Positions 6,015-63,022 of a stretch of 64,000 bases of DNA are shown here, piece after piece (the stretch's first letter is position 1; each line of letters opens with the position of its first letter). The stretch is from the NCBI GenBank assembly GCA_018821925.1, contig JAHJLF010000030.1, positions 5,851 through 69,850 on the forward strand, given 5' to 3'. Made by a program: the position numbers and the translations under genes. Source of the stretch: Candidatus Edwardsbacteria bacterium (GTDB lineage Bacteria; Edwardsbacteria; AC1; EtOH8). Below the pieces are notes generated by a model. The model saw nothing but the letters and a program-made list of their open reading frames with translations. It had not been told where the DNA came from and ran no database searches.

Positions 6015-6110
6015 AACTCATCCCCGCCTGTCGGACAAACATGGGCAGTGCCCCCTTCTCTTTGCTTCGATAGACTCAGCACAAGTCCCAGAGAAGGGCA
6101 GGGGTGAGTT
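6015..6110. repeat. Composite REP-like palindrome (CCCT..AGGG family with nested CTTCG..CTCAG unit)
   Basis: aactcatcccc...ggggtgagtt outer arms; cccttctc/gagaaggg stem; internal cttcgatagactcagcacaag. Confidence 0.6.
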
Positions 6111-6145
6111 CAGATTTTTTAATCTTTTATTTTTAAAATTAAATT

Positions 6146-21406: not shown

Positions 21407-21490
21407 CCAGTGGCCGAGTTGCCGGTGTTTCGATACATTCCTTCGGAACACTCAACGGCCGGCAGTATCGAGGCTACTGGCTAGGATCCG

Positions 21491-21529
21491 GACCCCACCC
21501 CACCCTCCCCTAAAGCATTAGAAGAGGGA
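21491..21529. repeat. GACC..CCCT/AGGG palindrome family copy
   Basis: gaccccaccccaccctcccctaaagcattagaagaggga; core matches the copies at 51765 and 62971. Confidence 0.7.
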
Positions 21530-21601
21530 ATAATTTACCTCAGCGTCTCTGCGGTGAAAAAACTTCGCAACAATCATACAATAACTTTTATATAACAAGA
21601 A

Positions 21602-22699: not shown

Positions 22700-22923
22700 G
22701 ATTGCTTCACTTCGGTAGCCATTCAAGGTGCCGGGCTCAGTGCAGGCTCTTGCCAGGCGTGGATGTCTTTTCGCAATGACACGGGGTTCAGCGGGGCGGT
22801 AAAGGGGGCGGGTCTGAGACCCGCCCCTACGATAATCCCGATTAGAGGCAGGACATACCTATGCTTCTGCGGCAAAAACCAGATTGCTTCACTTGTCAGC
22901 CCCCGGTGTCTTTTCGCAATGAC
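22700..22923. repeat. Cluster of REP-like elements
   Basis: Two GATTGCTTC...TCGCAATGAC units (22700-22780, 22882-22923) and a GGGGCGGGTC/GACCCGCCCC-TAC unit (22799-22830). Confidence 0.7.
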
Positions 22924-27101: not shown

Positions 27102-27150
27102 ATTATGGTGAATGGATTACGGATCACAGGGGACGATGGGTTTATTAATG

Positions 27151-27192
27151 GTCATTGCGAGAAGACAGCAGAACCGGGCAAATGAAGCAATC
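27151..27192. repeat. REP-like GTCATTGCGAG..GAAGCAATC unit
   Basis: Reverse complement of the units at 22700 and 22882. Confidence 0.65.
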
Positions 27193-27213
27193 TGAAAAAC
27201 TACTATCCTTTTT

Positions 27214-27255
27214 ATCCCCTCGTTGATCAAGGAGGGGACAAAGGGGTGGTCTAAA
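27214..27255. repeat. Palindrome copy left of the DUF559 gene
   Basis: atcccctcgttgatcaaggaggggacaaaggggtggtctaaa; 41/42 identical to 28206-28247. Confidence 0.85.
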
Positions 27256-27274
27256 ATGCTTGGAGTATTAATGC

Positions 27275-27631
27275 ATGACGCAGAGACATAACAAACCGGA
27301 ATATAAACCGGTAAGAAAATATCTGCGCAATAATTCAACCCAGGCTGAGATAATCCTCTGGCGATTTTTAAAGAAAAAACAATTGAACGGTTTGAAGTTC
27401 CGGCGCCAGCATAGCATCGGCGGGTTTATAGTTGACTTTTATTGTCCCGAAAAGAGACTGGCCATAGAGTTGGACGGTGACGTTCATGAGGTGGAGAGGC
27501 AGGCGGGTTATGATAAAGCCAGGCAGAAAGCCATAGAGGCGCTGGGGATAAAAATATTAAGATTTGCCAACGAAGAGGTCATTGAAAACATTGAGGGCGT
27601 CATAAAAGCAATAGCGGCGAAAGCTGATTGA
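27275..27631 (+). CDS. DUF559 (Vsr-like PD-(D/E)xK) endonuclease domain protein
   Basis: 'LRNNSTQAE..LW..L...QL.GLKFRRQH.IG.FIVDFYC....LAIELDG..H' signature. Confidence 0.92.
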   Translation: MTQRHNKPEYKPVRKYLRNNSTQAEIILWRFLKKKQLNGLKFRRQHSIGGFIVDFYCPEKRLAIELDGDVHEVERQAGYDKARQKAIEALGIKILRFANEEVIENIEGVIKAIAAKAD

Positions 27632-27666
27632 CCACTCCCTACCCCCTCCTTGAATAAGGAGGGGAT
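27630..27666. repeat. Palindrome copy right of DUF559, inverted relative to the left copy
   Basis: gaccactccctaccccctccttgaataaggaggggat; starts within the DUF559 stop codon. Confidence 0.8.
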
Positions 27667-27695
27667 GATAAAAGCGTGAATGTTGTGAGGGCAAT

Positions 27696-28178
27696 ATGAA
27701 AAAAGTAATTTTTATTACATGTCTACTTTGGCTTAATGGTGTTTTATTGTATGCTCAACAAACCGATACTACTTTGATAAAAACCGACACCTTGCCAAAG
27801 TATGGGACTTTAAAAGTGATTGTTTTGGATTCTGATACCAAAGAGTTCTTACCGGGAGCAATGGTTATACCGCAAGGATTTGGAGATACAGTATTCACGG
27901 ATATTAACGGCATATGTATAATAAAAGAAGTTATTTCCGGTAACTATAGATTGTTTGTAAAAATACCGACCCACTTCATTTTGTTAACAGATCAATTTAA
28001 AGTGGAAAATAATTTATTAACAAGGATTAAAGTTAAACTAAAACATGATCCCAAGGCACCTATTAATCAGGCTGCAGACGATATGGCAGATAATGTACCA
28101 ATGATACAAAGGGATAAAACGTCATCTTATCGCGTTTACACTGAAGAAGAAATAAAACGATACCCCAGCAAACCGTAA
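27696..28178 (+). CDS. Secreted CarboxypepD_reg-like domain protein (AT-rich)
   Basis: Signal peptide; 'GTLKVIVLDSDTKEFLPGAMV...TDING...GNY'. Confidence 0.7.
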   Translation: MKKVIFITCLLWLNGVLLYAQQTDTTLIKTDTLPKYGTLKVIVLDSDTKEFLPGAMVIPQGFGDTVFTDINGICIIKEVISGNYRLFVKIPTHFILLTDQFKVENNLLTRIKVKLKHDPKAPINQAADDMADNVPMIQRDKTSSYRVYTEEEIKRYPSKP

Positions 28179-28205
28179 TATTTACAGGAACAAACCATTA
28201 CAATG

Positions 28206-28247
28206 ATCCCCTCCTTGATCAAGGAGGGGACAAAGGGGTGGTCTAAA
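28206..28247. repeat. Palindrome copy (direct repeat of 27214-27255)
   Basis: atcccctccttgatcaaggaggggacaaaggggtggtctaaa. Confidence 0.85.
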
Positions 28248-28265
28248 TATCAATCTGACAAATAA

Positions 28266-28529
28266 ATGACGACCGACAAAAGCCAGACTTACGACGTATT
28301 AAAAATACCCGATTTCCGAAAATTCCTGTTCGGTAGGTTCTTTGTCACCATCTCCATCCAGATGACCGCGGTCATCGTGGGCTGGCAGATCTACCAGATA
28401 ACCAAGGACCCCATGGCCCTGGGCCTGGTGCCGTCCCTGTTGTTCAACAGCGGGATGACCCTGGCGGTGGCCGCCGCGGGGGCTAAACTGGCGCCCAAGC
28501 TGAGGGAGCATATGGAAAAGACAGAATAA
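28266..28529 (+). pseudogene. Internally deleted MFS transporter (EntS/DUF894-like)
   Basis: 87 aa made of a typical MFS N-terminus (FRKFLFGRFF...GWQIYQIT.DPMALGLV) joined to a typical C-terminus (PSLLF..GMTLAV....APKLR). Confidence 0.65.
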
Positions 28530-28595: not shown

Positions 28596-29168
28596 ATGAA
28601 AAAAATATTTACCTTTTGTTTTATTGTTTCTACAATAGCGTTTTCGCCGGTTATTGCAGGTGCTGACTCAACAGGCTATTTTACTGGGTATGTAATTGAT
28701 GCTAAGACAAAAGAGCCCATGGTTGGCGCTGTTGTTCAAATTATTGGCACCAAGATGGGCGCCAATACCAACATGGACGGAAGGTTTGTGATTGTGGATG
28801 TTCCGATGGGAATATATTCCCTGGAGATCAGGACGATGCTTTATTATACAAAGACAGTCAAGGATGTTAAACCGACTATGTTGGCACTAAAGGATTCTTT
28901 AATTCCAGATACATTGACAGGATGTGTTAAAAATATAAACGTGGATAAAGAGGTAATATCTCAAAGAAAGAGATACTTTGCAATTAAAGTTACCAATCAA
29001 AGCGGCAGATTAGATACTATCACGGTGTGGCCTTTTAATAAGGATGATATGGAAAAGTGGGTAAAAGCCTGGAATCATTCACCAACACCAAGAATAAAAA
29101 ACCCGGATGAAACCCAAACAATACGGACATGGAATGAAAAAGAGATAAAAAGGATGCCCGGGAATTAA
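28596..29168 (+). CDS. Secreted CarboxypepD_reg-like domain protein (AT-rich)
   Basis: Signal peptide; 'TGYVIDAKTKEPMVGAVVQIIGTKMGANTNMDGRF'; GGGAG RBS. Confidence 0.75.
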   Translation: MKKIFTFCFIVSTIAFSPVIAGADSTGYFTGYVIDAKTKEPMVGAVVQIIGTKMGANTNMDGRFVIVDVPMGIYSLEIRTMLYYTKTVKDVKPTMLALKDSLIPDTLTGCVKNINVDKEVISQRKRYFAIKVTNQSGRLDTITVWPFNKDDMEKWVKAWNHSPTPRIKNPDETQTIRTWNEKEIKRMPGN

Positions 29169-43823: not shown

Positions 43824-43931
43824 GTCATTCCCTGACCGCTCCCTCATTCCCTCTCCACATTGGAGAGGGAAGCCGGCAGGCGGGGAGAGGTCGGGAATCC
43901 AGGCCTGGATGCCATTCTTCAATGGCATGAC
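43824..43931. repeat. Nested REP-like element
   Basis: GTCATTCCC..GGGAATCCAG..CTGGATGCC..GGCATGAC outer unit containing CCCTCTCC-acatt-GGAGAGGG. Confidence 0.7.
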
Positions 43932-50737: not shown

Positions 50738-50811
50738 ACCCCTTCCCCGTCGGGGAAGGGCCTGCACTGAGGAGAATTTTATTTTACCTTGCGAAGTGGG
50801 CAGGGGTTAGG
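50738..50811. repeat. Composite palindrome (CCCTTCCCC/GGGGAAGGG with nested CTGAG..CGAAG unit)
   Basis: cccttccccgtcggggaagggcctgcactgagg...gcgaagtgggcaggggttagg. Confidence 0.6.
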
Positions 50812-51764: not shown

Positions 51765-51819
51765 GACCCCACCCCTGCCCCTCCCCTAACGCATTAGGAG
51801 AGGGATAAAGGGTGGGGTC
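51765..51819. repeat. GACC..CCCT/AGGG palindrome family copy (full, both arms)
   Basis: gaccccacccctgcccctcccctaacgcattaggagagggataaagggtggggtc. Confidence 0.8.
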
Positions 51820-62970: not shown

Positions 62971-63022
62971 GACCTCACCCTTCCCTCTCCTAATGCTTTA
63001 GGAGAGGGGTAGGGGAGAGGTC
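62971..63022. repeat. GACC..CCCT/AGGG palindrome family copy (full)
   Basis: gacctcacccttccctctcctaatgctttaggagaggggtaggggagaggtc. Confidence 0.8.

Follow-up and report, generated by a model that had tools for sequence, protein, structure and literature searches.

This report concerns a small nuclease gene of the DUF559 family and the structured repeats that adjoin it in a 64,000-nucleotide stretch of DNA, hereafter the window, from Candidatus Edwardsbacteria bacterium. The window corresponds to C47:5851-69850 of a metagenome-assembled genome of 2.44 Mb in 95 contigs (genome code G000; other genomes are numbered likewise). The gene (27275..27631, plus strand) encodes a Vsr-like PD-(D/E)xK protein of 118 amino acids (PF04480) and lies between two inverted copies, A and B, of a hairpin repeat; a third copy, C, stands to the right, behind an open reading frame (ORF) of 160 codons. 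Here we show that a conserved cassette, in which a DUF559 gene of about 0.35 kb sits between inverted structured repeats with their arms toward the gene, has one of its copies at this locus, and that a nuclease gene with inverted triplex-motif repeats is a conserved physical unit across phyla.

The DUF559 gene and repeat copies A, B and C

Copy A (27214..27255, plus strand; subtype S2; R1, 32.5 bits) consists of a hairpin, CCCCTCGTT-GATC-AAGGAGGGG (27216-27237), with one stem mismatch, followed by an ACAAA spacer and a G-rich arm (G-arm), GGGGTGGTC (27243-27251), which faces the gene; the distal C-rich arm (C-arm) is absent. Copy B (27630..27667, minus strand) is inverted and reads GACCACTCCC, TA, CCCCCTCCTT-GAAT-AAGGAGGGG, with the C-arm at 27630-27639, the hairpin and its GAAT loop at 27643-27664, and no distal G-arm. 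Its GACC begins at the G of the DUF559 stop codon TGA (27629-27631). Copy C (28206..28247, plus strand; 44 bits) has its hairpin at 28208-28229 and its G-arm at 28235-28243, and forms the right end of an inserted segment. The original prediction for this locus, that inverted copies bracket the DUF559 gene with the right one starting in the stop codon, and that a third copy identical to the first at 41/42 positions lies behind an AT-rich gene (the 160-aa ORF, ~35% GC), is borne out by these coordinates and by the alignment of copies A and C. The hairpin pattern has four matches in the window, where 0.07 would be expected.

Copies A, B and C were considered as terminators or promoters and rejected, as they lack T-runs and were not called by terminator prediction. 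A comparison with Rfam gave no family match, and no intron, in the window or the cassette loci; in relatives, it gave only sub-threshold matches to Acido-Lenti-1 and whalefall-1.

The window protein scores 114.7 bits against PF04480 (cut-off 20.6) over residues 15-115. Its catalytic motif is intact (D..ELDGDVH, within DFYC...IELDGDVHE), and the form D..ExDGxxH is kept in 76/76 members from the same bacterial family. The solved DUF559 structure, PDB 3HRL, is matched at 7e-19, and the homing endonuclease I-Bth0305I (3R3P) weakly, at an E value of 0.075; a survey of PD-(D/E)xK proteins placed DUF559 and I-Bth0305I in one clade with Vsr (PMC3424549). The Vsr profile itself gave no match, the Pfam scan returning DUF559, MTES_1575 and DUF2726 only, and the ORF list of the window contains no methylase gene adjoining the DUF559 gene. 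Against its orthologues in G002 and G003, the gene has a ratio of nonsynonymous to synonymous substitution (dN/dS) of 0.09-0.12 at dS 0.9-1.5. Judging from this low ratio, the kept motif and the fold, the gene encodes a nuclease that is maintained and probably active. Despite saturated synonymous sites, repeats A and B are 95-98% identical over the same span (40-41/42 positions for copy A in G002 and G003), and the GAAT loop and arm of copy B are kept in G002, G003 and a G004 cassette at a different locus. Either the repeats are under constraint, or they are continually made alike.

The repeat family and its association with DUF559 genes

The three copies belong to a family of ~130 elements in G000 (127-146 by mapping, in 2.44 Mb), and a covariance model finds 121 matches there, both strands counted. 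The full element has the order C-rich arm (GACCYCACCC), pyrimidine stem, loop, purine stem and G-rich arm (GGGGWGRGGTC). At least six subtypes can be told apart, namely S1 CCCTCTCC, S2 CCCCTCCTT, S3 CCCTCCCC, S4 CCCTTCCC, S5 CCTTCTCT and S6 CCCCTCT. The arms covary with the inner stem by a mirror rule, with G opposite G and A opposite A or T, and a cognate mirror arm is found on at least one side in 93/144 hairpins, compared with ~40 after flanks were swapped between elements. Copies A, B and C follow the rule, AAGGAGGGG pairing with GGGGTGG read backwards. A simple nested palindrome was rejected as a description of the element, as the two arms complement each other only in part and instead mirror the purine stem. 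The elements are thus built like the class II intrastrand triplex motif (TM) known as BoxC/PIT/TM, the triplex being predicted from the sequence; for copies A and B and the elements at 62971 and 51765, what was computed is hairpin folding.

In G000, there are seven DUF559 genes of about six clades, all adjoined by elements, and every clade has a repeat subtype of its own. An element lies within 200 bp of 12/14 DUF559 flanks and of 141/4492 flanks of all genes (3.1%; binomial 8e-17), a background that rests on crude gene calls, and a contrast that is slightly inflated by mild circularity, some of the BLAST queries used to map elements being themselves DUF559 flanks. The palindrome is therefore enriched beside DUF559 genes, as had been anticipated, rather than equally frequent beside any gene. 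Chance was ruled out as the origin of the layout both on these counts and on the hairpin excess in the window. Elements occur at both ends of 11 among 2246 G000 genes, four of which are DUF559 genes, and a fused DUF559 gene (C54:7365) also has both; the comparison is 5/7 for DUF559 with 6/2239 for other genes (Fisher's test, 2e-11). The other doubly flanked genes are two spurious ORFs made of repeats, the gene between B and C, and ordinary housekeeping neighbours. The two DUF559 genes without a downstream element have altered 3' ends. Most flanking subtypes also have many gene-less copies.

The association extends well beyond G000. In the bacterial family, 76 DUF559 genes were found in 17 genomes, most with recognisable flanks (the phylum-level sample comprised 19 genomes). 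In a maximum-likelihood protein tree, the DUF559 clades coincide with the subtypes of the flanking repeats. The clade of the window gene has S2 flanks in six of seven members, the seventh being at a contig edge, at no fewer than four loci, and the S1, S5 and S6 clades are equally consistent with their own flank subtypes. Outside the phylum, 79 loci were compared (Cyanobacteria, Chloroflexota, Spirochaetota, Gemmatimonadota, Proteobacteria and others); 46/77 of their upstream flanks and 51/75 of their downstream flanks have a pyrimidine-stem hairpin no more than 150 bp away, where distant parts of the same loci give an expectation of 0.042. The spacing is tight, with the downstream hairpin a median of 35 nt past the end of the match, and the mirror arm is on the gene side in 24 vs 9 and 27 vs 12 cases. 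With the arms mostly gene-side, the usual arrangement is that of the window: [hairpin + G-arm] gene [C-arm + hairpin]. One G000 clade of DUF559 genes (C54:7365, C67) has its arms outside instead. In Escherichia coli K-12, the stop codon of the DUF559 gene ycjD is the site of a TM-like sequence, and ~170 bp downstream, before fabI, there is a BoxC/TM element. Within the same interval (NC_000913.3, 1351039-1351420), ~45 nt of the ycjD 3' end are duplicated downstream, and the duplicate sits between the TM-like stop-codon sequence and the BoxC element.

Several cassettes have features of their own. At C54:7299-8396 of G000, the DUF559 frame continues through the downstream hairpin (PPSPDLSGEGRGEV) into an S-adenosylmethionine (SAM)-methyltransferase ORF, giving a 365-aa frame, and this cassette is at the same locus in G002, G004 and G007 (another genus). 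At C67:43870-44540, a cassette is framed by two ~72-bp copies of a hutU-like gene's 3' end, which have diverged by 11%; to the right of the cassette is an AAA-ATPase-like gene that is absent at that locus in relatives, in which the right flank is not conserved. Upstream of radA (G000 C56:16409-16855, G004 and G011), DUF559 cassettes of differing clades and subtypes occur, depending on the genome.

Insertion, turnover and gene-less elements

Three genomes, G000, G002 and G003, have the segment that runs from A to C, and G001, G004, G009, G010 and G005 lack it; G001 and G004 are of the same genus as G000. In the segment-less genomes, the stop codon of a cyclase gene is followed by an ordinary GC hairpin terminator and then by a gene of the major facilitator superfamily (MFS), except in G004, which has the MFS 3' end only, and G005, which has a different gene. 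In G001 and G009, the sequence right of C directly abuts the cyclase terminator. To judge from this alignment, the insertion of the segment between the cyclase and MFS genes took place in an ancestor shared by three of the genus's five species, and displaced the cyclase terminator. The MFS gene is intact in G001 and G009; in G000 it is a remnant (28266..28529, plus strand), in which ~55 N-terminal residues are fused to ~30 C-terminal ones. Between the cyclase stop codon and copy A, 112 bp (27102..27213) are unique to G000; in G002 and G003, copy A lies 12-14 bp past the stop. This stretch contains a member, GTCATTGCGAG...GAAGCAATC, of another dispersed palindromic family (GTCATTGCGAGAAG ... 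GAAGCAATC / TCGCAATGAC), which is also found at C44:13700-13840.

Empty sites, a predicted sign of past movement, were found in related species both for the window segment and for gene-less copies. No target-site duplication was seen at four filled/empty pairs, at which the inserts replace target DNA. The solo element at 62971 is present in G000 and G002, and its site is empty in G001, G003 and G004. Another, of subtype S2 at C58:49562, is absent in G002, and in G000 provides the stop codon of the upstream gene. A series of states was found at C30:50360: G002 has nothing at this site, G001 and G003 have just a bare hairpin, G000 has a hairpin with a C-arm, and G004 carries a full cassette of the window clade, with identical outer flanks. 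This series fits gene loss via recombination between two hairpins, or through microhomology (TTGAC); gene entry at the hairpin with hairpin duplication would be a less economical alternative. Moreover, orthologous intergenic sites differ in subtype between species (C30:15024, C30:82615, C61:2015 and C58:38215, G000 compared with G001-G004). For example, one site has S2 in G000 and S1 in G001, reflecting overwriting or repeated hits of the same site. Within a DUF559 gene of G004, a 59-bp S1 element stands in place of 46 bp. Each of the events described is thus a replacement and not an insertion at a staggered cut. Overall, gene and flanks are co-inherited, and occasionally relocate as a unit.

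The gene between B and C (27696..28178, plus strand; ~35% GC) encodes a secreted-looking 160-aa protein with a weak CarboxypepD_reg-like domain, and had been proposed as cargo mobilised by the repeats. It is one of four G000 paralogues and the only bracketed one. AT-richness was rejected as a sign of foreign origin, since the paralogue at 28596 is just as AT-rich and occurs in relatives too. The orthologues in G002 and G003 are 59% and 48% identical, respectively, and the gene thus evolves faster than the nuclease gene. With the other three paralogues unbracketed and the G004 cassette, at its other locus, having no such gene, mobilisation of cargo finds no support. Copies B and C together look like one full element that was split at its hairpin by this gene.

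The solo elements listed in the original prediction are all members of the same superfamily, although of other subtypes than A-C. Three of them are full and gene-less: an S1 element at 62971..63022 (GACCTCACCC / CCCTCTCCTAA..TTAGGAGAGGG / GGGGAGAGGTC; 50.8 bits, z -5.4), an S3/S1 hybrid at 51765..51819 (49.3 bits), whose site is occupied in all five species, and an S1 element with a long spacer ahead of its G-arm at 43834..43892. Three others also belong to the superfamily, but the first is decayed and the latter two are split by a second small insert. These are a partial element with a C-arm, a decayed hairpin and no G-arm (21489..21536; 23.6 bits), an S5 element with extra inserts (6015..6120; AACTCATCCCC .. 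CCCCCTTCTCT .. AGAGAAGGG .. GGGGTGAGTT), and an S4 hairpin, CCCTTCCCC gtc GGGGAAGGG, followed directly by a CCTGCACTGAG mini-insert (50740..50800).

This mini-insert, CACTTCG-N22-26-CTCAGTGCAGGCTCT, is ~45 bp long and is always found within palindromic repeats, in either their stem or their loop. Window copies lie at ~50760-50800, ~6040-6100 and 22735-22800, and the genome has 45 copies (e.g. C1:5306 and C70:5924). Its hosts include all TM subtypes and the unrelated GATTGCTT..TCGCAATGAC family. The S2 element at C58:49562 contains it in G001 and G003, and lacks it in G000. The mini-insert has no match in Rfam, and resembles a second, very small mobile element with hairpins as its targets. A different kind of site is seen in a purL-like gene (G000 C34:7300-7350), where an S2 element is read in frame (FAPPLDPLLIKEGTGLT) and is kept in G003 and G004; at the same codon, G001 and G002 have a different C/G-rich insert.

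A proposed mechanism, its rivals and related systems

The explanation we favour, and which in our judgement stands evenly between right and wrong, is that the nuclease recognises its own subtype of repeat and cuts it, with break repair copying and homogenising the repeats. Each DUF559 protein would recognise its subtype by sequence plus hairpin or triplex shape, and would nick or cut it. The break would then be repaired from another copy by gene conversion, as in homing, which would keep the copies alike. Repair might also spread repeats to new or already occupied sites and keep the gene linked to the repeats.

Copy numbers bear on this proposal. There are 13-22 S2 copies in the genomes with the cognate gene (G000, G002, G003, G004, G008 and G010) vs 0-5 in 11 genomes without it (p 4e-4), and the same is seen within genera (5 in G001 vs 13-22; 2 in G013 vs 18 in G010). 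For S3, the figures are 8-18 copies with and 2-13 without the cognate gene (p 0.002). The number of DUF559 genes also correlates with that of model matches over 41 genomes (rho 0.80), the covariance model being built from G000 elements and so favouring relatives and G000 subtypes.

Besides that bias and the circularity in the flank counts, a number of observations weigh against the proposed mechanism. S1 shows no clear dependence on its gene (p 0.065), with 26 copies in G003 and 16 in G001 where no gene is flanked by it, and neither does S4 (p 0.22), with 14 such copies in G002 and 17 in G015. The commonest and most uniform subtype, S1 with a TAA loop end (~30 copies), has no gene flanked by its exact variant. 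Within the family, DUF559 count and repeat count correlate with rho 0.47 (p 0.058), and all cross-genome tests of copy number are confounded by shared descent. The match between protein clades and repeat subtypes would also arise from plain co-inheritance of gene and flanks. Two genomes without DUF559, G018 and G024, have ~12 and ~7 real elements. Among complete E. coli genomes, the repeat is present in 5148/5426 and ycjD in 3378 (62%), so that ~1,770 have the repeat without ycjD, the counts being totals unsplit by ycjD presence. The counts from G018, G024 and E. coli indicate that repeats persist without the gene. Thus, the notion that repeats multiply or stay intact only with the gene is supported for some subtypes (S2 and S3), and not for S1 and S4. 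Similarly, the shortage of copies that was expected without the gene is seen for S2 where the cognate gene is missing, but G018, G024 and E. coli genomes without ycjD keep their repeats.

A broader version of the proposal would make DUF559 proteins, E. coli YcjD included, the cognate enzymes of BoxC/PIT/TM repeats at large, with subtype-specific cutting and copying by break repair, and hence a pan-bacterial class of Vsr-fold nuclease-and-repeat elements, parallel to REP/RAYT but without transposase-type chemistry. This is put forward tentatively, and we think it somewhat more probably wrong than right; from the arrangement of the sequences, DUF559 is a candidate partner of BoxC/TM repeats.

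Alternatively, the association may be passive, in that fragile TM sites gain and lose DNA and capture small dispensable genes, DUF559 among them, while the enzyme is inactive on the repeats. That a non-DUF559 gene sits between B and C in the same layout would agree with this, as would the persistence of repeats without the gene, the reuse of orthologous sites by different subtypes, and insertions that replace target sequence and leave no target duplication; TM loci have also been tied to rearrangement, with no mobility genes found (Holder et al. 2015, PMC4666352). Passive capture nonetheless accounts poorly for the enrichment of DUF559 alone among doubly flanked genes (4/11, plus the fused fifth), for the recurrence of flanked DUF559 genes in phyla that are unrelated, with arm orientation and spacing unchanged, for the retention by each protein clade of its own subtype at different loci, and for S2 and S3 copy numbers that follow the cognate gene. 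We consider it unlikely.

Less likely again is that DUF559 serves the host as a caretaker, a Vsr-like structure-specific repair nuclease that removes or resolves TM hairpins or triplexes and so limits damage or spread. Strong purifying selection is what such a role would call for, and long vertical persistence at fixed loci (the window cassette in three species, the S1 cassette beside a methyltransferase gene in several genera) and the usual presence of one gene per subtype per genome agree with it, together with membership of the Vsr/MutH-type fold clade (PMC3424549) and the stable non-B structures that TM DNA makes in vitro (PMC4666352). A caretaker, however, would not have to be flanked on both sides by its own substrate in every phylum; moreover, copy number is higher, not lower, with the cognate gene, and many genomes have repeats without the gene.

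Finally, the inverted repeats might act in expression control, as terminators or insulators, or as inversion sites of a switch for a potentially toxic nuclease gene, which is very improbable: A and B are indeed inverted and tight against the ORF start and stop, and 'DUF559 domain-containing protein' is 14-fold enriched among predicted targets of programmed inversion (PMC9881135), an enrichment that may simply reflect the flanking inverted repeats, but the hairpins were not called as terminators, PIT elements acted neither as promoters nor as terminators in E. coli (as cited in PMC4666352), the ORF list shows no recombinase gene nearby, and ~130 gene-less copies and their mirror arms would be left unexplained.

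If cutting and repair by DUF559 are the link between gene and repeats, two familiar puzzles would share one answer. Since the 1990s, BoxC/PIT/TM repeats have been known from E. coli, cyanobacteria and many other bacteria, and we know of no function or protein partner assigned to them; DUF559 is among the commonest unexplained small nuclease families. Repeats and fold are thus each known, while their coupling is absent from the literature mentioning DUF559 that was searched. Also new here are the mixed result of testing dependence subtype by subtype, the series from empty site through solo element to cassette at C30:50360, the exchange of subtypes at fixed positions, the estimates of selection, and the preferred arm orientation seen in other phyla. 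A functional coupling would explain both the repeats and DUF559, would account for the instability reported at TM loci, and would place beside the REP/RAYT system (repetitive extragenic palindromes and their associated RAYT genes) a second, mechanistically different resident system of repeats plus nuclease, with small nucleases that may read DNA shape besides sequence.

The closest known relatives of the repeats are the BoxC/PIT/TM elements themselves (Bergler 1992; Hoyne and Maher 2000, 2002; Holder et al. 2015, PMC4666352). The TM motif occurs in >260 genomes and is linked to locus instability, with no transposase, integrase or other mobility gene found near it (Holder et al. 2015, PMC4666352). 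Alike are the pyrimidine stem, the purine stem, the G-rich block mirroring the purine stem and the short loops, as well as a copy number in the tens, with copies that lie mainly between genes, on both strands and frequently as inverted pairs, at loci that are rearranged between close relatives; the E. coli element likewise adjoins a DUF559 gene, ycjD. In contrast to the published elements, for which no associated gene has been described, those reported here bracket a nuclease gene, add a C-rich arm, so that both strands read as the motif, and fall into six or more co-existing subtypes.

In its layout, the cassette parallels REP/RAYT without an HUH enzyme, as the original prediction held, the flanked gene being DUF559 and the flanks inverted copies of a genome-dispersed repeat. 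As in REPtrons, a single-copy, vertically kept nuclease gene is flanked by its own inverted repeats, many copies are gene-less, several gene/repeat pairs occur per genome, and repeats can outlast the gene. On the other hand, the enzyme is a Vsr-fold PD-(D/E)xK protein of ~118 aa and not an HUH Y1 (IS200/IS605-like) transposase, the repeats are of the mirror or triplex type and not GTAG-headed REPs, they number in the tens and not the hundreds, and dependence on the gene is clear for some subtypes only.

EDxHD or Vsr-like homing endonucleases such as I-Bth0305I (PDB 3R3P) share the fold clade (PMC3424549) and a weak sequence match; they are likewise encoded by small, selfish-looking nuclease genes, whose spread would use break repair and leave no target duplication. 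The DUF559 ORF, however, stands free between genes, outside any intron or intein, has structured repeats at its borders, and is under purifying selection at one locus across species, whereas homing genes cycle and decay. A last comparison is with insertion sequences and the miniature inverted-repeat transposable elements (MITEs) derived from them, or with remnants of the solo long terminal repeat type. Terminal inverted repeats around a gene, short gene-less derivatives, and one site (C30:50360) with a full cassette-to-remnant series are all shared with these; the DUF559 cassette differs in having no transposase of a known family and no target-site duplication, and in replacing its target DNA.

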